Virus genome (UHGV): UHGV-0095173
DNA length: 16,150 bases
From: a virus
Direction: 5' to 3' (one strand)
Position 1 is the first letter of the stretch, and every line of letters begins with the position of its first letter. Both the position numbers and the translations under genes were made by a program. Below the pieces are notes generated by a model, which was not told where the DNA came from, searched no databases, and saw only the letters and a program-made list of their open reading frames with translations. Below are positions 1 through 15,400 of the stretch, piece after piece.

Positions 1-584
1 TCAGCTATAAAGCTGTTGTGAAGTTCAGCAAGCGTTTCACGCCCGAACGGGGTCAGCTCTCCGCGTTCCGCATCCAGCATGGCGCGGTAGAACACAATGG
101 CGTTCTCTGTTCCCTGCTCAACGCCGTAGCGCTCAATCATTGCGCCCTCGATGTTGTTTGCCATCGCCAACCGTTCAGCAAACGGGTAAATCACCATGCC
201 CGCATTGCCATTGGAGTAAATCGCAACCTGCGATGATGTGCCGTCAGTGTCAGTAACCGTGGTGGTGCCATTCTCGCGCGTCATCTCAGAAACGAACGTC
301 GCAGCAATCAGCCAGCGCCACATGGTTACTTCATGCTGCGCGGTGAAGTCGAACCAGCCACGCTCCCCGCCGTCAGCCACTGCCAAATGCAGGGCAAATC
401 CTTCATCGGTCTTATTGTCATACTCACCCGCATCCAGACGTACTACGACTTTTTCGTAGTTGATAAGAGCAACATGCTCATACATTCCGGCATCATTGCG
501 GGTCATGATATTGACGCCGTGCGGTGTGGCTTCGGCGTGGAACAGGTCGGGATTTCCCGGTTTAATGGTCAGTATATTGCTCAT
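1..584 (-). CDS. hypothetical protein, 5' part only (at least 194 codons; ORF runs past window start)
   Basis: ATG at 584-582 overlaps the stop of the upstream gene (ATGA at 581-584). My reverse-complement translation (MSNILTIKPGNPDLFHAEATPHGVNIMTRNDAGMYEHVALINYEKVVVRLDAGEYDNKTDEGFALHLAVADGG...) has no stop down to position 1. Absent from the ORF track because no stop lies in the window. No family recognised. Confidence 0.5.
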   Translation of the reverse strand, partial: MSNILTIKPGNPDLFHAEATPHGVNIMTRNDAGMYEHVALINYEKVVVRLDAGEYDNKTDEGFALHLAVADGGERGWFDFTAQHEVTMWRWLIAATFVSEMTRENGTTTVTDTDGTSSQVAIYSNGNAGMVIYPFAERLAMANNIEGAMIERYGVEQGTENAIVFYRAMLDAERGELTPFGRETLAELHNSFIA

Positions 585-802
585 GCTTTGCCCTCCCGAT
601 ATTCACGCATTACATGGTCAGCTAGCTTGCTTTCAGCCTCGCTCATTGCTTCGGGCACACCGTGTAACAGCGTCAGAATGGAACCTATAAGGCGTGGTAA
701 ATCGGGATCTGTTTTATTGGTGGTGCTCTCCAGCCACATGGACAAAACAGCCTGTGCCTGTTCAATCTGGCAGGCAGCATCAATCAGTTTTAACTGGCTC
801 AT
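581..802 (-). CDS. hypothetical small protein (73 aa), paralog of the neighbouring 59-aa protein
   Basis: ORF track entry. Start overlaps the stop of the upstream gene (ATGA) and its stop overlaps the next start. Shares a QAQ-VL-MWL core with the 799-978 product. Confidence 0.5.
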   Translation of the reverse strand: MSQLKLIDAACQIEQAQAVLSMWLESTTNKTDPDLPRLIGSILTLLHGVPEAMSEAESKLADHVMREYREGKA

Positions 803-978
803 TTGTCACTCTCCACTGCCAGCGCATCAGCCAGCCCGTCTAAGATTGTCAGCACCGCATCCACCATATCGGGCGCTTCCCCGTCGTCGGTGGTCATGGT
901 GTGAAGCCACATGGTGAGGACGGTCTGCGCCTGTTGGATTCTGCACATTACTTCACTAACGCTTAGTCCCTGTTTCAT
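799..978 (-). CDS. hypothetical small protein (59 aa), paralog of the 581-802 product
   Basis: Not in the ORF track (under 60 aa). Hand translation: MKQGLSVSEVMCRIQQAQTVLTMWLHTMTTDDGEAPDMVDAVLTILDGLADALAVESDK. ATG at 978-976 overlaps the stop at 975-977; stop at 801-799 overlaps the ATG at 802-800. Confidence 0.45.
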   Translation of the reverse strand: MKQGLSVSEVMCRIQQAQTVLTMWLHTMTTDDGEAPDMVDAVLTILDGLADALAVESDK

Positions 979-1172
979 CGCTTCCCCTCCCGTTCTGCCA
1001 ATTCTTCAATCAGCCATGCGGTAACGTCACCGGAAAGGCGCTTTAGCAGAGTGGCGATTGCGGATACTTCGCTATCTGCAAGGCGGTGGGGGAAGTCTTC
1101 AACAAGACGGGCAATTATCTCAGTCTGGTGGGCGCGTTCTGCTGCCTGCTCTAAGGTGATTTCACGGCTCAT
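975..1172 (-). CDS. hypothetical small protein (65 aa)
   Basis: ORF track entry. Preceded by AGGAGGTG embedded in the upstream gene; ATGA overlaps at both ends. Confidence 0.5.
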   Translation of the reverse strand: MSREITLEQAAERAHQTEIIARLVEDFPHRLADSEVSAIATLLKRLSGDVTAWLIEELAEREGKR

Positions 1173-1348
1173 GCTGCCACCTCCTGAATACGAGTAATAC
1201 GAACGTGCTTATAACCGCCTTTATTCGCCAGTAGTTGCGCAGTCGATTTAGCTGTTTCTGGACTGGTGCTAGTCATGGTGTAGTGAATGCCGACGGTGTT
1301 ACCGCGCTTGTTAACAGCGTATCCGTCGATCTGGAAGGTTTTACGCAT
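1169..1348 (-). CDS. hypothetical small protein (59 aa)
   Basis: Not in the ORF track. Hand translation: MRKTFQIDGYAVNKRGNTVGIHYTMTSTSPETAKSTAQLLANKGGYKHVRITRIQEVAA. ATG at 1348-1346 lies just downstream of the recombinase-like stop (1341-1343); its stop overlaps the next start (ATGA). Confidence 0.45.
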   Translation of the reverse strand: MRKTFQIDGYAVNKRGNTVGIHYTMTSTSPETAKSTAQLLANKGGYKHVRITRIQEVAA

Positions 1349-2219
1349 TTCCGACCTCCATTGCTAAACGGGACTGGATAGCTGCCGCTTTACTGCCTAA
1401 TTGCAGGTAAGTACGAGTTATCGCAGGGTTGCTATGACCCAGCATTTCAGAGGCCACTAATAGGCCCTGTTCGCCACCTGCGGACATGAGGTTAAAGGCG
1501 GCTATTTTGCGGCTTGAGTAGGCGCTCAGGCGCAATTTAGCGTTAATGAAACGGGTAAACCACGCCATGACGCCATGAAGTTTGCGCCAGATGGTTTGGC
1601 GAGTAACGCTACCTTCCAGACGTTGACAACGGTTACTTTCGATTTGAGAGCGGGAAAATACCAGGTCGTCCTCCACCAGATTCCGATCCTGACGGTCACG
1701 CAGCCGCTTGATAATGCCGGGGGGTAACTGTTTGGTGTCGTGCTTGACGTCAGCCTTAGCCACCAGCCCGAACACAATCGCCTGTTCTTCGTCGTTCATA
1801 TCGGCGGCCAGTTCATCACAGCCGATACTATCCCACTTCATGTAGGCGATATGGTCAGCGGCGAGCCGCGCGGCGTCCTTGCGCTGCTGGCGCACAATTT
1901 CAATACCTTTGCGGGTTGCCCGCGCTTCTGCGGCTTTGGTCTGTTTGGAAACGATAATTGTCGCCTGTCCAGTTTCCCAATTGATGCAGGAATAGCGCAG
2001 GTTGCAAACGTCGCTGGTACGCCAGCCGGTTACGGTCGCAATATCCCACCAGAGCAACACCCAATCGGGCTGTGTCTGCTGGATGCGCTCGCGTAGCTTG
2101 CGCTGCTCGTCACGGTCATAGACAGGGGTCATGGTGCGACTGCCCTTTGTGCTCGCCGCTTTAACGACATTGCCGCGCAGCTCGCGGGCTTTGGCTGTCA
2201 GAGTCTGGAGGTTAAACAT
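1341..2219 (-). CDS. tyrosine recombinase-fold protein (phage integrase family, catalytic domain, about 292 aa)
   Basis: C-terminal LGHSNPAITRTYL matches the tyrosine-recombinase box II signature (His and catalytic Tyr). Box I-like TGWRTSDVCNLRY. The usual HxxR appears as SSRK. Start placed at ATG 2219 (MFNLQ...) because GGAGGTG sits 4 nt upstream; the track's longer ORF begins at a TTG at 2312. Confidence 0.65.
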   Translation of the reverse strand: MFNLQTLTAKARELRGNVVKAASTKGSRTMTPVYDRDEQRKLRERIQQTQPDWVLLWWDIATVTGWRTSDVCNLRYSCINWETGQATIIVSKQTKAAEARATRKGIEIVRQQRKDAARLAADHIAYMKWDSIGCDELAADMNDEEQAIVFGLVAKADVKHDTKQLPPGIIKRLRDRQDRNLVEDDLVFSRSQIESNRCQRLEGSVTRQTIWRKLHGVMAWFTRFINAKLRLSAYSSRKIAAFNLMSAGGEQGLLVASEMLGHSNPAITRTYLQLGSKAAAIQSRLAMEVGNA

Positions 2220-2400
2220 GACGCACCTCCGGCACTGGCAGACGTGCGGCCAGAGACAAAATAAAGTGCGGCGCAAGGATGCGGCGGGCTTCGCGTTCGG
2301 TCGCAGCCTCAACGGACAGACGGCAAGGTTTGGCTTTTTTATCGTGGCGATTCAGCGCGAGAAAGCGCCAGGTGAATTTTGAGTGTGCGGATCTAGCCAT
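2212..2400 (-). CDS. hypothetical small protein (62 aa), first gene of the operon
   Basis: ORF track entry. AGGAG about 9 nt upstream of ATG 2400. Its stop overlaps the recombinase-like start (ATGTTTAA). Function unknown. Confidence 0.45.
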   Translation of the reverse strand: MARSAHSKFTWRFLALNRHDKKAKPCRLSVEAATEREARRILAPHFILSLAARLPVPEVRHV

Positions 2401-2720
2401 TTTTAGCGGCTCCTAGAACATATTGAAGGAGTCTCGCCAGATGCTGCTAAACATGGGTGGCGAGACGTGACGGGGTTAGCAGACTGGCGTTCTAGGAAAC
2501 CAGCAGGCGTTAAGCCTCCCCACCACGCCCCGCCATAAATCGGGGGTATGGTTGGTTTTCGGGCGTAAAAATACCGCTATACGGAAATCAGCGGCTACCC
2601 GCTAGAACGTTCAGGCTGCTAAACCCGGCACCCGTTTTGTGAGGTGCAAAATAATCATAACCACACTACCCCGTTAAGCGCAAGGGAAATATCCCCTGCG
2701 CCCACAATGCAAACTTGTGA

Positions 2721-3791
2721 TTAGTACCCGCGAGAAGCGTAAACTCGTGCCATGCCAGCCCAATGAGAGAAAAGAATTTCCCACTTAATTGGGTTGTAGG
2801 TAATACTTCCATCGACTGCGGCAGCATTCCATGCCCGATCAGAAATAGAGCTATCTTTAGCAGTTTTCCCCCATTCAACAATATCCCTTGCTAAAGCCTG
2901 TACACATGCTCGACTGACTACCTTTTCGTCAACGTACGCCCCAACATCAGAGCATGACTCCATACTCATGTTCAGGCTATTTTTAAGGGACTCCAGCCCG
3001 GCCACTGACATAAAGCGACGACCATTAGCGTATGCAACACCGTCATTCCTGATAGTGAACTTAACAGTGTGGAATGCGTCAACAATCATCCGCTGCTCTG
3101 GCGTCGGGTTCTGCCATAGCACAAGGTTAATCTCTCTCTCAGAAGCTATTGATTCTGCTTTCTCACGCTTAACTCGTGCATCCCGTTCTGCCTGGTATTG
3201 TTTTTGATTTTCATCATGAGCCTTTTGGTAACTAGAGGCTAATGCGTCTCTGTTTTTGGCAAATGCTGCAATGCTATTTTTGAAATCGCTTCTGCTAACC
3301 TTGTTTAACCCCATACTCCAGCGGTCATTTTCGTAATCATCATAAATGGCATCAACTTTTGCCGGATTACTCAGCACAGTCGCCAGATTAACCGGAATTT
3401 TAGCCATCTCGTCACTGATTCTCGCTACATGTTCGAAAGTCGATATAGAGCCAACTTCATGACTCCCATACTCATGATAAGCGGCATAAAAAATTGGAAT
3501 AGATTGAGGTTTTTCGTTCACTGACTTAATGATGCTTTTTTCATCACATGACTGTTCACCCCATTTGAAAACACTTTTCCCACCATTTTTGTATGTGTTG
3601 CAATCATCAATACCCAAACGAACCAGCGCATCCCATCCGGGCCGTTTCTTGTAATCCTCGCTCTTGACAACATGCATTGTGGTTAGGGCTTTCGCAGGAT
3701 CTAACTTGCCAGCGGTACAAGACACGATAGGAAAGGCCAGAGAAGCGCAGGCTGCTATCCTGAAAAGGCTCGTCAATCTTTCTTTTTTCAT
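2721..3791 (-). CDS. predicted lipoprotein (356 aa), cargo gene of unknown function
   Basis: N-terminus MKKERLTSLFRIAACASLAFPIVSC has a basic n-region, hydrophobic core and lipobox-like IVSC followed by T. Central charged, coiled-coil-like stretch (YQKAHDENQKQYQAERDARVKREKAES). Looks AT-richer than flanking phage genes by eye. No family recognised. Confidence 0.7.
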   Translation of the reverse strand: MKKERLTSLFRIAACASLAFPIVSCTAGKLDPAKALTTMHVVKSEDYKKRPGWDALVRLGIDDCNTYKNGGKSVFKWGEQSCDEKSIIKSVNEKPQSIPIFYAAYHEYGSHEVGSISTFEHVARISDEMAKIPVNLATVLSNPAKVDAIYDDYENDRWSMGLNKVSRSDFKNSIAAFAKNRDALASSYQKAHDENQKQYQAERDARVKREKAESIASEREINLVLWQNPTPEQRMIVDAFHTVKFTIRNDGVAYANGRRFMSVAGLESLKNSLNMSMESCSDVGAYVDEKVVSRACVQALARDIVEWGKTAKDSSISDRAWNAAAVDGSITYNPIKWEILFSHWAGMARVYASRGY

Positions 3792-3843
3792 CGTCCTAAT
3801 GCTCTTTCAAACCAAGAATGTAGGACATAGTAAATTGTGGTTA

Positions 3844-4170
3844 ATGGCAAGTCGATATAAAGGCCGGGTTATTGGCTTCGGTGCCAATATCATTTCTCCG
3901 AAATTTCATAACGCCTGTAATCGCTCGTTTCCCCATCTTGGGGACATTTCAAAACTGCGAATCAAAGTGCGAATGGAACTGCGAATTCGCAAAGAGAGAG
4001 CGCCGCTCAAAGCAGGCCGGATAAGGCTTCGCGGACATATTGCGAATGCGAATCCACCAGAAACGAAACGCGAATCACCCATAAACAAAACCGATACGCA
4101 GGGAGCGTACTGCCCGTATTCAATCGGCCGAAAAGTCAGCCGATTAAAATCATGCCCGGCTATCCCCTGA
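3844..4170 (+). pseudogene. terS-like relic: diverged inverted copy of the 5' part of the prophage small-terminase gene (possibly an intact 108-codon ORF)
   Basis: An 18-mer caccagaaacgaaacgcg at 4055-4072 is identical to the reverse complement of terS 11811-11828. TGCGAAT repeats at 3956-4075 mirror those at 11904-11958. The frame from ATG 3844 gives MASRYKGRVIGFGANIISPKFHNACNRSFPHLGDISKLRIK..., resembling TerS MAKPDWGELQQRFLSEHAKTGISPKEWCEAQGLNYSTAKRYIKIA. The repeat block is read in a different frame from terS and I found no convincing RBS. Confidence 0.3.
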
Positions 4171-4630
4171 AATTTCAGGAGATCGAGAGCCACCAGCAGA
4201 GAACCGTTCATGCCATCGGTAACTTGCAGCCCGAAGCTCAAATCTGAGCGTTGACCGCCAGCCAGAAGAAACCATTTTAAATCCCGCGCCTTCTCTTTGG
4301 ATGAACAGGGTTACTCCCCGTAATGCTGTGAACTGCCACGATGATTCGGGGTTGTGTTGCGCTGGCCTTTGAGTCCCGCACAAACACTGACCCACAAAAT
4401 TTTTGTAGGTGACTGGCCCTCTTGATGAGGTGCTGTTTTGCGTAACCCTTAATGAGTTGTGCAAAGGCTCAACCCTTTAAAAGGGTTGCCTAACCACCGG
4501 CGATAGTAATAACCGCCAACCTATGAACACTATGAACACCTTTGAGCATTTTTCTATAAACATTCCACTACTGCCCTATTTGATGCCTTTCTCTGGCTGG
4601 CCTGTGTAAGTTACCGTTGCTGGGAACTGA

Positions 4631-4668
4631 CAATAAAAAAGGCTTGCCCCTCTCAGGTAACAAGCCTT
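4631..4668 (-). terminator. intrinsic terminator downstream of alpA
   Basis: Minus strand: 8-bp stem AAGGCTTG / CAAGCCTT with a 14-nt loop followed by TTTTTATTG, about 20 nt past the alpA stop. Confidence 0.5.
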
Positions 4669-4685
4669 GTCTATCGCTCTGGATC

Positions 4686-4898
4686 TCACTCACTACAGAT
4701 TCCGCGCTTTTGGCTCTGTCTTCCGATCCACGCCTCCACCTCATCGCGATACCAGCAATTGCGGCCGCCAACTTTGAAGGGCATCGGAAAGCCGTTCCCC
4801 TCATCCTTCAGAAATTCATAGAACGCAGAATCAGAACGGTAGCGTAGACGGGCTTTAACTTCGACTTTGAGCAAAATATCACTGTTAGATATGGACAT
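4686..4898 (-). CDS. alpA: AlpA-family transcriptional regulator / excisionase-like protein (70 aa)
   Basis: GFPMPFKVGGRNCWYRDEVEAWI matches the AlpA signature (FP-P-K-GGR-W-EVE-WI). GAGG RBS 5 nt upstream of ATG 4898. Sits next to a P4-type integrase. Confidence 0.85.
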   Translation of the reverse strand: MSISNSDILLKVEVKARLRYRSDSAFYEFLKDEGNGFPMPFKVGGRNCWYRDEVEAWIGRQSQKRGICSE

Positions 4899-4973
4899 AA
4901 AAACCTCATTATATATTCGATATAATTATATATGATTTGAATAAAAAAAACGCATTCCGGTTAGCTTTGGGCA

Positions 4974-4999
4974 TAAAAAAAGCTGGCTTAAAGCCAGCT
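4974..4999 (-). terminator. intrinsic terminator downstream of int
   Basis: Perfect inverted repeat AGCTGGCTT / AAGCCAGCT (4981-4999) followed on the minus strand by a run of 7 T, about 40 nt past the int stop. Confidence 0.6.
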
Positions 5000-5040
5000 A
5001 TACCCGTTTGAAATCATGATTATCCAGAAATGGATGTGCC

Positions 5041-6270
5041 TTACACAACCAGCCTCAAGCCCTTATCGCCGCTGGTCTCCAGTATTTCGCCACACTCTGC
5101 GGCCTCGATAAAGTCCCCCCACCATTGCATTAAAACCCGGCGTTTTTCCAGATAGTCGCTACGGTTATAAACATTTCGAATCGCATCGGCGCTTTTGTGA
5201 GCGAGTGCAGCCTCAATCACATCAGGGTTGAACCCCTCGTCATTTAAAACTGTAGATGCCAACGCCCTGAACCCATGAGGAACAATCAGCCCTTTAAACG
5301 ACGTTTTGTGTATCCCGGCCTGAGTCGCACAGCGTGAGATCGGCTTATTTTCTTTTCGCCATGAGGGGAAAACATAATCGCAGCGCTTCCACTTTTCGGC
5401 CTCTTTAAGCACGTTTATAGCCTGGCTCGATAATGGGACTACGTGGGGGCGCTTTCCTTTCATCCGGCTTGCAGGGATTTGCCAGATTGAGTTATCAAAA
5501 TCAATCTCATTCCAGAGAGCGCCGCCAGCCTCCGAAGGCCGGACCATCGTAATGATCTGGAATAATAATGCCAGCTTTGATGGCTCCCATAAGCTCAACT
5601 CGTTCCATGCGCTTAAAAATTCGGGCAACCGCTCTTTCTGTAAAGTCGCTCTTGGCTCGTTTTTTTCAGCCGGGAATGCTTTACCAATTTTCGATAGCGG
5701 GTTGTGCTCAATAACCCCAATGTTTACCGCATAATCCATTATGGCGTTGATGGTAATAACCATTTTCGTAAGCGTTGATGGCCTTTCCCTGAAAGGTTTA
5801 AAAGCCTGAATAGTATCGGCTGCGTTTATTTTATGTACCGTGGTATGCCTAAAAATCGTGGAAAGATGCTTCAACGTCACATTGTGCGATTCAAGCGTGT
5901 TGCTTCTCGCACCTTCTTTAATCTTGATTTTTAGCCATTCATCGGCAACGGCCTGAAATGACTGCGCGTACATTTTACGCTGTTCATTCCTGGCATCTTT
6001 TTTGACTTCGTTCGGATCTATCCCTCGCGCTACCATACGGCGCAGTTTCGAACGTTCCTCCCTCGCTTCGGACAAAGTAAACTCCGGGTATCGTCCAATA
6101 GTATAGGTTTGTCTCTTCTTCGTTACCGGGTGTACATACCGAAAACGCCATGACTTACCGCCCCGGCTTGTGATGTAAAGCAACAAACCGAAACCATCGT
6201 GCAAACTGAAATCCTTGCCCTGTGCCTTCGCGCTTTTCACTTCGACGCTAGTTAGTGGCCTAACAATCAT
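5041..6270 (-). CDS. int: tyrosine-type site-specific integrase, P4-like (409 aa)
   Basis: N-terminal arm-binding-type domain (GKSWRFRYVHPVTKKRQTYTIGRYPEFTLSEAREE). C-terminal catalytic region with HGFRALAST and downstream Tyr (RNVYNRSDY). GAGG RBS 7 nt upstream of ATG 6270. Confidence 0.95.
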   Translation of the reverse strand: MIVRPLTSVEVKSAKAQGKDFSLHDGFGLLLYITSRGGKSWRFRYVHPVTKKRQTYTIGRYPEFTLSEAREERSKLRRMVARGIDPNEVKKDARNEQRKMYAQSFQAVADEWLKIKIKEGARSNTLESHNVTLKHLSTIFRHTTVHKINAADTIQAFKPFRERPSTLTKMVITINAIMDYAVNIGVIEHNPLSKIGKAFPAEKNEPRATLQKERLPEFLSAWNELSLWEPSKLALLFQIITMVRPSEAGGALWNEIDFDNSIWQIPASRMKGKRPHVVPLSSQAINVLKEAEKWKRCDYVFPSWRKENKPISRCATQAGIHKTSFKGLIVPHGFRALASTVLNDEGFNPDVIEAALAHKSADAIRNVYNRSDYLEKRRVLMQWWGDFIEAAECGEILETSGDKGLRLVV

Positions 6271-6484: not shown

Positions 6485-7705
6485 TTATCCTTTGCGGTTA
6501 GACCAGAAGTCGGCGTTTTGTTTGTTCAGGGAAGCGATGCTGGTCATGCCCATATTTGGACGTTGTGCATCGCCCGTGGTGCTGCGGGTGTTTCGCCCTT
6601 TGGCAATCTCTGACACGGCGTTAAACGCCATATCTACCGATTGCTTGGGCAATTTGCGGATATCCGCATCACCGACAACCTGGCGAACCAGTGTTTTGTC
6701 AGCGGCAGCCAGCACATCACGTTTGAACGCGGTCGGTTTCACCTTACGGCTCAGATCGATACCCGGGACGATAACTTCGGCACGATAAGCAGCGTCACCA
6801 GTAATCGTGGTTTCTTCTTCATCGTCCTCGCCGTCACCGGTCGGATTATCGTCAGGATTATTGTCGTTATCGCCCGTCGCAGTTCCTTCGAGCTTAGCCA
6901 GCAGGGCTTTGAGCAAGGTTTTGATATCGTCCTCGCCGTCGCCGGTTGGCTCTCCGCCCATTTCCGGCTTTTTGTCCGGCAATGGTTGCTGCGGTGAAAG
7001 GTTAATGTTGAGGTTAACGCCGCTCGGCAGATCCCCTTCGTCACCCGTTACCGCCGCTGGCGCAGAGTCCAGCAGTTCGTTCATGGTGTCAGCGTCACCC
7101 GTTTTGATGGCCGTGCGCATGCGGGTCCACCAGCTTTTCTTTTGATTTGCCATTGTGTCTCTGTCTCCAATTGCACAACGATTTCCGGCTCTGCCTTTGG
7201 GGACAAGAGCCACATGGTTTCCGGTAATATCGACCTGCTCGGCTTTACCTGGCTCGGTCTGCTCGTACTCCGCGTCATAGCCGCACGACACTTCACGCAG
7301 GCCATCTTCGATAAGCTGAATGGCGTTTTCGTCTTTGACGATAAGGTCAGCCAGCATCAAATCAGACTGATCACCAGTCCCGCGCCGAACGTTCTGAAGA
7401 TGCCCGACCGCAAGCTCTTTCCAGTTCTCGGGGTTGACCAGCCGCACATTCCCGTTTTCATCTTCAGGATGCAGGATCGTGATGCTCATCCCTTCGAATG
7501 AGGCGAGCGTGGCCGGATGGAATACCTGCTCAGGAGAACGCGTGACGACTATTTCACCGAACTTATCGGGTTTCAGTTTTGGCAGGTCATCAGCACCATA
7601 GAGCTGCTTACCCGTTCGACCTATCGGCACGTCTTTGCACAGCAGCGAGCCGTCAGCCAGCTGATAGCGGGTTTCCCCCAGCCGGGTGTAGAAGAAATAT
7701 TTCAT
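6485..7705 (-). CDS. phage head scaffold/protease-like protein (DUF2213-like, 406 aa)
   Basis: Follows portal and head-morphogenesis genes. Motif GNHVALVPKGRAG. Acidic, low-complexity C-terminal half with two PTGDGEDD copies. Start overlaps the upstream stop (ATGA). DUF2213 assignment is from memory. Confidence 0.75.
   Translation of the reverse strand: MKYFFYTRLGETRYQLADGSLLCKDVPIGRTGKQLYGADDLPKLKPDKFGEIVVTRSPEQVFHPATLASFEGMSITILHPEDENGNVRLVNPENWKELAVGHLQNVRRGTGDQSDLMLADLIVKDENAIQLIEDGLREVSCGYDAEYEQTEPGKAEQVDITGNHVALVPKGRAGNRCAIGDRDTMANQKKSWWTRMRTAIKTGDADTMNELLDSAPAAVTGDEGDLPSGVNLNINLSPQQPLPDKKPEMGGEPTGDGEDDIKTLLKALLAKLEGTATGDNDNNPDDNPTGDGEDDEEETTITGDAAYRAEVIVPGIDLSRKVKPTAFKRDVLAAADKTLVRQVVGDADIRKLPKQSVDMAFNAVSEIAKGRNTRSTTGDAQRPNMGMTSIASLNKQNADFWSNRKG
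6806..7051 (-). repeat. in-frame acidic repeat region inside the scaffold-like gene
   Basis: Near-identical 22-bp direct repeats at about 6821-6843 and 6927-6949 (atcgtcctcgccgtc[a/g]ccggt[c/t]gg), encoding PTGDGEDD twice amid a Gly/Asp/Asn-rich stretch. Confidence 0.6.
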
Positions 7706-12090: not shown

Positions 12091-12147
12091 GAATATTTCC
12101 TCTTAATGACATTATCGAAGCCCCTCAGTGAAGAGCTTCTGTAATGG

Positions 12148-12405
12148 CTACTTCGTTTTTGCTTCCGCTCTTTTACGGCGGCGCTCTTCTTTCTTCTCGG
12201 CGTTTGCCATGTCCATGAATGCCTGCATGATCGAGTTCCTCATCATGTAACTGACAAAGTGATGATTGACGCAGCCGTTGAGACGGAGTTGCTCGCCAAA
12301 CTGATCAACCGAGGCCAGCACTTCCATCATGCCCTTCTCGCCTTTCATGAACTCAGAGAAGTCTCGCCCCGCTCTGGAGGCGCATTCGATGACGCGATTA
12401 TTCAT
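12148..12405 (-). CDS. hypothetical protein (85 aa) translationally coupled to the KilA-N gene
   Basis: ORF track entry. ATG 12405 overlaps the KilA-N stop (ATGA). Lys/Arg/Glu-rich C-terminus. Confidence 0.5.
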   Translation of the reverse strand: MNNRVIECASRAGRDFSEFMKGEKGMMEVLASVDQFGEQLRLNGCVNHHFVSYMMRNSIMQAFMDMANAEKKEERRRKRAEAKTK

Positions 12406-12899
12406 CCTTGAAGCCCTGGGATCGTAATCTGCAGCTGGTTAGCCAGGGTATTAATCTCAGCGACCAGCACAGGCTTTGTATAGCGCCATGCAGCGAGGCC
12501 TTGTCCGCAGAAGCTCGCCATGTCTTTCTTCTGGTCAAACTCATGACACTTCATGTTGAGCTGCGCACTTAAGCTGTTGCGATGCTGAAGCTCTCCGGTG
12601 AAGTAGTCATCGAGGATTTTATAAGCTGCGTACTTGAACCCTGGGTTTAACCAGGCCGCATAATCGTAAGCAACAAACTTCCCGCCATAGGTTCCGCCAT
12701 GTACGCCGCGCTCAGTAAAAACCACAGATTCGTGGTTTTTCTCCAGCTCGGCTAAGAACTCTTTGGTCTGCTTGTTTCGCAGGTAGTGGTAAGGCGATTC
12801 AGATTCACTTTTACCACTGGCTTTCCACATATCAGTGAGGCAGATCATGCCATCTTCACCGATACGAATTGGTTGATTGAAGAGGGTTAATGATTTCAT
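12402..12899 (-). CDS. KilA-N domain protein (165 aa)
   Basis: N-terminal IRIGEDGMICLTDMWKA and later GGKFVAYDYAAWLNPGFKYAAYKIL resemble the KilA-N DNA-binding domain. Lies between the lysis cassette and terS. Confidence 0.7.
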   Translation of the reverse strand: MKSLTLFNQPIRIGEDGMICLTDMWKASGKSESESPYHYLRNKQTKEFLAELEKNHESVVFTERGVHGGTYGGKFVAYDYAAWLNPGFKYAAYKILDDYFTGELQHRNSLSAQLNMKCHEFDQKKDMASFCGQGLAAWRYTKPVLVAEINTLANQLQITIPGLQG

Positions 12900-13014
12900 A
12901 GCGTGTACCTACTCTTTGAAATGAACCTTTGCCGCACAGGAAACCAGCCCACCGAGGCTCGCCAGCACTAACTGGTATCCTCAAAGGCCCATTCCAAAGG
13001 GGCAGGTTCGGTGT

Positions 13015-13070
13015 AAAAAACATGCGTTGCGGTACGCATTTATTGCAAAAAGCCCCGCATCGCGAGGCTC
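13015..13070 (-). terminator. two tandem intrinsic terminators downstream of Rz
   Basis: Minus strand: stem AGCCTCGC / GCGGGGCT with loop GAT then TTTTTGC (about 13045-13070), followed by stem ATGCGT / ACGCAT with a 6-nt loop then GTTTTTT (about 13015-13040). The second hairpin also reads as a terminator on the plus strand. Confidence 0.55.
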
Positions 13071-13100
13071 ATTAAATGGACTTTGTGATTTGCAAAAAAA

Positions 13101-13580
13101 TTATTTCAGGCATTGCGTCCTGATGTATTCCTGCAGATAGCCAACCTGCTTCGTCACTGTGACGATTCGCTCTCTGAGGGTGAAATAATCCCGTTCAGCG
13201 GAGTCAGTAAGTCGGGGGCCGGTAACATCGCCCAGGCCGCCGGTGCTGGTCGCTCCGTTCGCGGGACATCTGGCGTTGACGTGCAGCCCACACTTGCCAG
13301 TGCGAACACAACGCTGCAAATCATCAAGCTGCTTTTTAGCATCAGCTAAGTCCTTCGTGTATTTGGCATCCAGCACCGCTGCATCACGCTGGCGGATCTG
13401 CATGTCTTTGATGGTGGCGTTCGCCTGGTTAAGATTCTTAATGGCTTTATCGCGCTGGTCTTTGTAGGTGATGGCGTTGCCGCGGTAGTGGTTAATAGCC
13501 CAAGCCATGGAAACCATCAGGCAGATAACGACAGCACAGATAATTGCTGTTAATCGGCTCACTAATCTAACCCCCAACAC
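13101..13580 (-). CDS. Rz: Rz-like i-spanin
   Basis: Strong resemblance to lambda Rz as I recall it (N-terminal TM segment, [31 protein letters not shown]). The track start at 13580 is GTG; the true start may be the GTG at 13562 (VSRLTAII...). Confidence 0.85.
13154..13342 (-). CDS. Rz1: Rz1-like o-spanin lipoprotein, embedded in Rz in another frame
   Basis: Lipobox ALASVGC followed by T; proline-rich; C-terminal [11 protein letters not shown] as in lambda Rz1; lies wholly inside Rz. Confidence 0.8.
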
Positions 13581-14107
13581 GCCAGCGCGCTTTCCTGGTC
13601 CCGTCTCTCAACCTGACCATAGCAGCCATTCTTCTGGCCTTTGGTTAGTCGGCAATCGCGGCCACCGTCTTTAATCCACCAGCGGATAGCTTCACAGGCT
13701 CCTTTCGTATCGCCAGCATTAATTCGCTTATAGAACGTAGACGGGAAACATTTTCCGGGGCCGATGTTATATGGGCAGAAAGAAGCGATACCCGCTTTCT
13801 GTGGTTCGGTCAGTGGTACTTTGATATTTCGGTCAACCCACGCCAGCGCCTTGTCGCGTTCAATGGCGTTTACCTGGGCGCATTTCTCAGCTGACAGCTT
13901 CATGCCCTGTACTACTGGCTTGCCATCAACCATTGTTGCACCACGGCAAATGGTCCAGAGTCCGCCGCCGTCGCGATATGCTGTCAAGCTGTTACCCTCT
14001 TTCTCATCCAGAAACTGATCGAGAATCACGGGTGCGGAAGCCCCGGCAAGAATCAAACCAACGACCGCTGCGCTCAATTTATTCTTCAGCTTTAGAGACA
14101 TAGCCAT
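13562..14107 (-). CDS. SAR endolysin (T4-lysozyme-like muramidase with N-terminal signal-anchor-release domain)
   Basis: N-terminal weakly hydrophobic Gly/Ala-rich segment [19 protein letters not shown] right after a basic stretch. Glu-8aa-Asp-5aa-Thr catalytic triad in [16 protein letters not shown]. Follows the holin. Confidence 0.9.
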
Positions 14108-14357
14108 TGCGCCGATCCTCCCGTTCTTTCCAGCGGAAATACCAGTTCACTGCACAGGTGATTACCGTGCATGCGATACCGACAATAATTGCCCAGTCGC
14201 TCAGGCTTAACCCTGCAATTCTGTCGGCCAACATCCAGGACACCTCTTTTGCTGTTTTTGCTGTTTCGGCATATGCCTTCGCTGATACACCGCAGCCGGT
14301 CAGCGTGGTGCCTGTTCCATATGAAAGTCTGCTGTAAATGGTGCTCATTCTGGTCAT
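14079..14357 (-). CDS. class II holin, pinholin-like (phage 21 S-like, 92 aa)
   Basis: Two predicted TM segments, the first Gly/Ser/Thr-rich. C-terminus NWYFRWKEREDRR resembles the S21 tail. MTRM dual-start motif. GGAGGTG RBS. Overlaps the endolysin start. Confidence 0.75.
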   Translation of the reverse strand: MTRMSTIYSRLSYGTGTTLTGCGVSAKAYAETAKTAKEVSWMLADRIAGLSLSDWAIIVGIACTVITCAVNWYFRWKEREDRRNGYVSKAEE

Positions 14358-14586
14358 AGCCTCACCTCCGATTCTTCGGATGGCGCTGTGTGTGTATGAA
14401 AAGGGTCAGGCCCTCGGGACGATTTAACAAGAAGGCATGTCGATGATGGTTCCCGTGAGCCTGAAATAGAAAGCCCCAGCAAATGCCTAGGCTAAATGAG
14501 GTGCCAGATCATATATCTGGCCGTATAACCTTGCGTTTGGTATTATTAAATCGCCAAAAGTAACCCTTCAAACACAAGGATTTAAA

Positions 14587-15117
14587 ATGACAAAAAGGAA
14601 GTACCGATTTTATCATGCGGACAGGGGTAACTTGCTGAGCCCTGACATGACAATAATCCCTGTAAATGGCCTCTCTTCATTTGGAAAGCATTATCTCTCC
14701 CGGATAAATAGTGGAAATATGAGCGACGTGCTAGACGAAAATGTACAAAGAGAGATGCTGTATGAAAATGTGCGGATGGAAAATTTCCCATCCCGCCCAA
14801 GCCGATTCTCGTGCCTTTTTGGTGCGAACTCCATTCCTGAAGCGGAAAGCTTCGCCAGAAAGATAATCCCGCAACCGACCACCCCAATTAATATTTATGA
14901 AGTTTTTACTGAAAATTTTGTGATTCTCGATATGAATTGGATGGATTACATAACAACAGATTTCGGTAGTAGGGTTGAATATGCCCGGCAGTACTGGTAT
15001 TCATCAATTACCCAGCACGCCCCACTTACCGGCGATAGGATGATACCAACCCTGGAAGTCCTGCTGCCGCTTCCCGTGGAAGTAGGCAAGCAAGTCAGTA
15101 CTGTCGCTTTTGATTAA
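14587..15117 (+). CDS. hypothetical protein (176 aa), accessory (moron-like) gene antisense to the late operon
   Basis: ORF track entry. AAGGA RBS 6 nt upstream of ATG. Only sizeable plus-strand gene in the window. Looks AT-rich by eye. Sits between the late promoter and the holin. No family recognised. Confidence 0.6.
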   Translation: MTKRKYRFYHADRGNLLSPDMTIIPVNGLSSFGKHYLSRINSGNMSDVLDENVQREMLYENVRMENFPSRPSRFSCLFGANSIPEAESFARKIIPQPTTPINIYEVFTENFVILDMNWMDYITTDFGSRVEYARQYWYSSITQHAPLTGDRMIPTLEVLLPLPVEVGKQVSTVAFD

Positions 15118-15286
15118 TCTGACAGTTCTGCTCAGGGAAATGGGCCAAAGGTTTATGTAAAGTCCAAAGCACTTCGGAAAGGATAGCTTTATATAGCTCA
15201 CCATCATTTGCATGATAGCGAAACCTTTCAGAAGGTGAGATTTCGAAAAGTACCTTTCCCTCATCTGAAACAATTCGGACTTTCAT
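15095..15286 (-). CDS. hypothetical small protein (63 aa), first ORF downstream of the late promoter and terminator
   Basis: GGAGG RBS 4 nt upstream of ATG 15286. Converges on the 176-aa gene with a 23-bp 3' overlap. AT-rich. Confidence 0.4.
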   Translation of the reverse strand: MKVRIVSDEGKVLFEISPSERFRYHANDGELYKAILSEVLWTLHKPLAHFPEQNCQINQKRQY

Positions 15287-15334
15287 CTTTCCTCCAAATT
15301 AGAAGCTACTGATTCAGTTATTACTTACTCCAGA

Positions 15335-15370
15335 AACGCAAAAGCCCCACGGTGTTATCCGCAGGGCTTT
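15335..15370 (-). terminator. tR'-like intrinsic terminator downstream of the late promoter
   Basis: Minus-strand hairpin CCCTGCGG-ATAACA-CCGTGGGG (two G-U wobbles) followed by CTTTTGCGTTTC; alternative 7-bp stem AAAGCCC / GGGCTTT. Confidence 0.45.
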
Positions 15371-15400
15371 AAACGAAGGCATTAACCCATCGTTGGGTCA

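Follow-up and report, generated by a model that had tools for sequence, protein, structure and literature searches.

The window analyzed here is a stretch of 16,150 nucleotides (nt) from the virus genome UHGV-0095173, the left third of which (positions 1 to ~6300) is a Gram-negative phage-inducible chromosomal island (PICI) lying in the head module of a prophage. Near its left end are two adjacent small open reading frames (ORFs), labeled A (73 amino acids [aa]) and B (59 aa); the neighboring ORFs of 65 and 59 aa are referred to as s65 and s59, and the gene downstream of A as p209. A and B are real, homologous genes under purifying selection; they diverged long ago within a single small family, the members of which are acidic three-helix proteins of ~57 to 80 aa. 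The family members are swappable accessory genes that are gained, lost, and exchanged at gene boundaries. The two genes are as follows:

581..802, minus strand: gene A, 73 aa, A-type member of the small acidic helical family (ORF; matches phrog_20558 and phrog_2196)
799..978, minus strand: gene B, 59 aa, B-type paralogue without most of the third helix (ORF; matches phrog_20558)

An earlier note, made from the DNA letters alone, had described A and B as paralogues with a shared core. Both ORFs are present at these coordinates on the minus strand, and the peptides quoted in that note correspond exactly to residues 11 to 27 and 42 to 59 of A and residues 12 to 28 and 42 to 59 of B. Pairwise alignment by BLASTP confirmed that the two proteins are true paralogues, with 20 identities over 56 positions (36%), 64% positives, and an E value of 7e-13. 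Both match the same two PHROG clusters, phrog_20558 (E = 1.8e-10 for A and 2.4e-4 for B) and phrog_2196 (E = 2.7e-6 and 7.2e-3, respectively); the clusters are of similar size to the proteins (61 and 74 positions) and the profile match spans most of each protein, but they are bare sequence clusters without annotation or function. In an alignment of 21 sequences that includes A and B types, residues Q15, A16, L43, T44, and L46 are invariant, and L6, Q17, V19, L20, W23, and G48 are nearly so. The ratio of nonsynonymous to synonymous divergence (dN/dS) with respect to orthologues was 0.04 to 0.13 for A and, where the synonymous divergence (dS) was unsaturated, ≤0.15 for B. Searches of Pfam, NCBIfam, and PADLOC returned zero matches for A, B, s65, and s59 (with E ≤ 0.1 as the Pfam limit for A and B), and thus no enzyme, DNA-binding, or defense family for A and B. 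Pfam, PHROG, and NCBIfam contained no Ant, AntA/B, or Bro family match to either protein, and both sequence and profile searches of the Protein Data Bank (PDB) with A and B were empty.

The AlphaFold2 model of A consists of three predicted helices (residues 6 to 26, 35 to 46, and 49 to 72), with a predicted local distance difference test (pLDDT) score of 88.9 and a predicted template modeling (pTM) score of 0.69, and B terminates ~11 residues into the third helix. All 24 family members examined have an isoelectric point (pI) of 4.0 to 5.0. The residues conserved in the 21-sequence alignment are spaced i, i+3/4, i+7 along helix 1 and helix 2 and probably form the hydrophobic core, a placement that would leave the surfaces free to vary. 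The proteins do not qualify as a WXG100/Esx-type pair: the WXG motif is absent from the alignment, and EsxA appeared in the Foldseek search only at E = 3.1.

The earlier note had also proposed that the pair arose by tandem duplication followed by divergence in place, and this part of it did not hold. At the nucleotide level, A and B are 53% identical overall and 36% identical at third codon positions, which are saturated; the duplication is therefore old. A-type and B-type genes each have their own orthologues across several Enterobacterales genera, and in the commonest two-copy order s65 separates B from A. Furthermore, when the window was compared with a related locus, L002, B differed at one synonymous site (dS 0.026), whereas A had a dS of 0.81, a mismatch that indicates cassette exchange. 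The A/B pair of the window is thus the product of cassette shuffling and not of duplication in place. The exchanged unit has the following limits:

803..1168, minus strand: exchangeable cassette of s65 and B (blastn alignments of the window with L001, L019, and L021 break exactly at 802 and 1169)

The copy in Escherichia coli ABWA45 (L001) is 96 to 99.9% identical to the window across the region. In this strain and in two viral contigs, s65 and B are swapped for an unrelated 87-aa gene between flanks that are 92.5 to 99.9% identical. The breakpoints coincide exactly with gene junctions, and the islands are near-identical and reside in the same helper prophage. The island can do without B in this helper.

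A and B belong to a longer chain of genes that is headed by RNA elements. On the minus strand, the order is isrK-like element, C4 RNA, Icd-like ORF, tyrosine recombinase, s59, s65, B, A, and p209:

2567..2647, minus strand: isrK-like element; this class picks up P4 seqA-type sites (RF01394, E = 1.5e-7, sub-threshold at 44.6 bits with a gathering score of 50)
2453..2540, minus strand: C4 antisense (immunity) RNA, directly preceding the Icd-like gene (Rfam RF01695, 75 bits; gathering score, 45)
2212..2400, minus strand: Icd-like protein, 62 aa, encoded by the first operon ORF (match to NF033153 phage_ICD_like at 79.7 bits, E = 1.2e-22)
1341..2219, minus strand: tyrosine recombinase, 292 aa, within the operon (PF00589, E = 4.9e-11; RefSeq annotation in L001)
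1169..1348, minus strand: s59, 59 aa, first of the small array genes and not related to A or B (ORF; homologues in L011 to L014)
975..1172, minus strand: s65, 65 aa, usual neighbor of the A/B family (phrog_1478, E = 2e-30)
1..584, minus strand: p209, 5' part of a 208-aa gene that runs off the window (phrog_1515, E = 4.9e-46; full gene in L001, 11958..12584)

As the earlier note had stated, A and B lie in a tightly overlapping, co-oriented gene chain. The last 8 nt of the Icd-like gene overlap the start of the recombinase gene (junction ATGTTTAA), and the junction between the recombinase gene and s59 is likewise an 8-nt overlap. From s59 through p209, the start of which overlaps the stop of A, the junctions are ATGA start/stop overlaps, each with a GGAG-type, Shine-Dalgarno-like run 6 to 10 nt upstream. 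The translational coupling that had been suggested is consistent with these overlaps and runs. A simple scan of positions 1 to 2800 revealed no promoter-like sites and two terminator-like sites, which were not above the expectation from shuffled sequence. The isrK match is above the Rfam threshold beside C4 in related islands. The C4 and isrK-like elements stand directly before the Icd-like ORF, an arrangement as in the immI unit of P1 or the CI-type immunity unit of P4. The recombinase is the second one of the element; most related islands are without it, and AlpA, AntA, and DUF4222 genes precede their Icd-like gene.

To define the distribution of the family, we searched 1.84 billion cluster representatives with a joint A/B profile at E ≤ 0.001. 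This search retrieved 76 representatives, nearly all 57 to 80 aa long, of which ~60 were A-like and ~10 were B-like. All named members are from Enterobacterales, namely, Escherichia, Salmonella, Klebsiella, Enterobacter, Citrobacter, Kluyvera, and Leclercia, as well as Serratia, Cronobacter, Tatumella, Pantoea, Erwinia, Yersinia, and Rosenbergiella; B orthologues were found in Tatumella, Pantoea, Erwinia, and Yersinia. Genes of the family occur in 10 of 5,426 complete E. coli genomes. A tblastn search of 50,697 phage records with four family members identified Fels-1 alone, and Fels-1-type DNA had no match in the complete E. coli genomes. One locus, L004 (CACSKA010000004.1), is labeled Chryseobacterium sp. 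and harbors an island with an A-type protein 97% identical to that of the window, which suggests that this assembly is contaminated or mislabeled.

Copy number and gene order were surveyed in 43 loci. The copy number does vary among related elements, a point that the earlier note had raised for checking: two copies were present in 10 loci and a single copy in 33. The commonest two-copy order, observed in seven loci, is Icd-like, B, s65, and A, and direct adjacency of B and A is limited to the window, L002, and L037. As for single copies, L014 has only B, and many loci have only A. The layout of immunity region, small genes, and primase recurs in ~30 related islands, and in most islands p209 comes after A, with p113 and the primase usually next in line. 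The family is also present in the early-left operon of lambdoid prophages, namely, Fels-1 and Yersinia prophages. No C4 RNA was detected in the Yersinia prophages, of which L016 and L017 carry a common cassette despite different replication genes, so that the family is not tied to a replication module. The Yersinia-type prophages (L016, L017, and L033 to L043) contain long arrays of helical ORFs of 50 to 75 aa after the cI repressor gene in the early-left operon; in these arrays, the junction from a 91-aa Icd-like gene directly to a B-type gene is constant and the later genes differ by locus.

Among the other small genes of these arrays, s65 may possibly be a very distant third paralogue of A and B, which we regard as a lead only. 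Its comparison with the A/B profile by hhalign gave a probability of 54% and an E value of 1.3e-4, in register, whereas pairwise BLASTP and shuffle tests between s65 and A or B detected no similarity. Three other small array families, h87, s59, and n58, gave E values of 0.016 to 0.33 in the same comparison (0.33 for s59) and have no relationship to A and B. The view of the entire array as one superfamily was therefore rejected, with s65 alone kept as a tentative relative.

The following features further define the host element:

5041..6270, minus strand: P4-type integrase of the island
4686..4898: weak AlpA-like ORF (16.8 bits against a cut-off of 21)

Genes for terminase, portal, head morphogenesis, and a DUF2213 protein lie upstream of the island on the same strand, and the DUF2213 head gene (6485..7705) borders it. 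The capsid side is visible only in the ABWA45 copy, in which capsid, neck, and tail genes resume past the island and in which the chain continues with p209, p113, and a TOPRIM/DUF927 primase that is beyond the end of the window. The island is thus integrated in the late-gene region of a prophage and in the same orientation, as is characteristic of helper-embedded PICIs, a configuration published by Tommasini, Mageeney, and Williams in 2023 (PMC10111431). In common with those islands, it has an integrase co-oriented with the prophage late genes, C4/isrK-type RNA, an Icd-like gene, a primase (in L001), and a site between head genes; in islands of this kind, the C4 and isrK Rfam models pick up sequences related to P4 CI and seqA (PMC10111431). 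What lies between the Bro/immunity zone and the primase is called "hypothetical" in that study, however, and the A/B family is not described there (PMC10111431). The host element, its RNA immunity, and the cataloguing of the family in PHROG, without a function, are already known, and the literature searched contains no discussion of the A/B family. The 14 published integration sites (PMC10111431) may not include the one used here, beside the DUF2213 gene. Attachment site mapping gave as its best repeat a 13-mer that is probably due to chance.

Some further observations concern the remainder of the island and its helper. The minus-strand gene at 2721..3791 encodes a 356-aa protein with a lipoprotein-like N terminus (…LAFPIVSC…) and without a match in Pfam, NCBIfam, or PHROGs. 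It stands where related islands have Bro/AntA-type genes and is probably island cargo. The following ~1.2 kb (3792..5040) have no annotated gene in the RefSeq copy and contain the weak AlpA-like ORF, and a stretch of 276 nt (4167..4442) is missing from ABWA45. In the helper, the region 12147..15371, with a KilAC-like gene and lysis genes, could not be aligned to the ABWA45 prophage, which is otherwise 97 to 99% identical; this region is a mosaic replacement.

Considering the small size, acidity, and helical nature of these proteins together with their accessory behavior, we tentatively favor the reading in which each of them modulates some other protein by binding to it, with A and B as specificity variants. 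In the quiescent island, the C4/isrK-type RNA immunity would hold the expression of A and B off. After activation of the island, both proteins would be made early, with expression spreading along the chain by translational coupling. Each would then work alone as a stoichiometric binder of a helper, rival-phage, or host protein, acting neither as an enzyme nor as a DNA-binding regulator, and the two would be kept as specificity variants for different targets. The suggestion in the earlier note of an inhibitor together with a specificity variant is conceivable. The regulatory part of this proposal is drawn by analogy with P1 immI and P4, in which the icd/eta ORF, on which the downstream genes depend, is blocked in translation or elongation by an antisense RNA. 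The locus resembles P1/P7 immI (c4 RNA, icd, and ant) in that a coupled gene chain begins with a C4 RNA and an Icd-like ORF, but the downstream genes are not Ant homologues, and regulation of the P1 or P4 kind is presumed here from those systems. Several results weigh against protein binding as the function. A and B have no characterized homologue, with all source names being "hypothetical" or "prophage protein." The Foldseek search with the A model yielded generic helical hairpins only (best E value, 0.87 in PDB and 0.38 in BFVD), and since the conserved residues look like core positions, no binding surface can be indicated. In addition, A is nearly always coupled to p209 in the islands, which fits a role with p209 equally well.

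A rather unlikely possibility is that an Icd-based module for cell death or superinfection exclusion includes the small proteins encoded behind the Icd-like gene, which would sense or gate its toxic Icd-like effector upon the appearance of a protein from a rival phage. The precedent is a locus of E. coli ECOR61 with six linked genes, the first Icd-like and the last coding for a DNA primase, that kill the cell when phage orf24 is expressed; transposon suppressors were located in the Icd-like gene and in the next two small hypothetical genes (~61 and 63 aa), and the phenotype requires these small genes (Silas et al. preprint, 10.1101/2023.04.06.535777). Its architecture of an Icd-like gene, small ORFs, and linked genes up to a primase matches that found here, and the Icd-like gene directly upstream of the B-type gene in Yersinia prophages agrees with such a module. 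The two loci are alike in layout, the ECOR61 small genes being no more than candidate members of the A/B family, and the Icd-like protein has 121 aa in ECOR61 (10.1101/2023.04.06.535777) and 62 aa here. The family is moreover rare in E. coli, the recombinase and another small gene lie between the Icd-like gene and A/B in the window, the Fels-1 family member has no adjacent Icd-like gene, and PADLOC gave no match. The broader conjecture of an Icd-based abortive-infection module, widespread in satellites and prophages, in which A, B, and perhaps s65 would serve for sensing or gating, with the paralogues recognizing different rival-phage triggers and ECOR61 as the first experimental example, appears improbable. 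A comparably low probability is assigned to A and B being helper-derepression proteins like P4 epsilon or P1 Ant, each inactivating a helper prophage repressor so that together they cover two repressor types. The gene of P4 epsilon, like A and B in the window and their counterparts in ~30 islands, has the RNA immunity region (Icd/eta-CI in P4) on one side and the primase on the other in the early operon of a satellite; the protein is similarly small and non-enzymatic, as the acidic A and B proteins appear to be. In P1, ant follows c4 and icd, which is a comparable position. Homology between the island and P4 was detectable at Vis/AlpA, the Icd/eta region, and the primase, but none was detected for the intervening genes. 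Epsilon has 95 aa, P4 is not embedded in its helper, and A and B share no sequence similarity with epsilon: they did not match PF25738, to which P4 epsilon itself matches at E = 9e-51, and an hmmsearch of the P4 proteins with the family profile gave E ≥ 0.5. P4 epsilon, orf151, and orf106 were accordingly rejected as relatives of A, B, or p113. Derepression is also at odds with the fact that lambdoid prophages themselves carry the family and that many related islands already have an AntA/AntB-type gene, and an island that lies within its helper and is excised after helper induction (PMC10111431) has little need to derepress.

The frequent succession of A, p209, p113, and primase in the islands surveyed would also fit A as an accessory subunit of the island replication apparatus that cooperates with these three proteins (p209, p113, and the primase), with B as a spare copy, for which we see little likelihood. 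The C-terminal ~60 residues of p209 weakly resemble P4 Cnr/ORF106 (DUF5375), a replication regulator (hhalign probability, 37%; E = 3.6e-4), and some p209 homologues have precomputed PF17345 matches. The resemblance to Cnr was not reproduced by hmmscan, a profile search of PDB with p209 was empty, and the prophage cassette shared between different replication genes points away from a tie to replication. Highly improbable, finally, is the idea that A and B form an obligate heterodimeric regulator, which takes up the "paired regulators" of the earlier note. The two genes are adjacent and translationally coupled here, and helical-hairpin paralogues often pair. However, most of the surveyed loci have one copy only, A and B each occur alone, other genes usually separate them where both are present, and all members are acidic without a match to a DNA-binding family, so that the notion of paired regulators is unsupported.

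By itself, the A/B family is one more uncharacterized small accessory protein family of phages and satellites, and the finding is modest. Its value is in the context, namely, a precisely bounded and rapidly exchanged cassette slot that is located in an RNA-immunity-controlled early operon of helper-embedded satellites and is common to lambdoid prophages. Such slots tend to house inhibitors used in conflicts between mobile elements. Of most concrete use are the cassette slot, with its exact boundaries, and a possible connection to the ECOR61 phenotype that can be put to the test; should the family indeed be linked to Icd-dependent cell death, it would offer a way into how this module is triggered.
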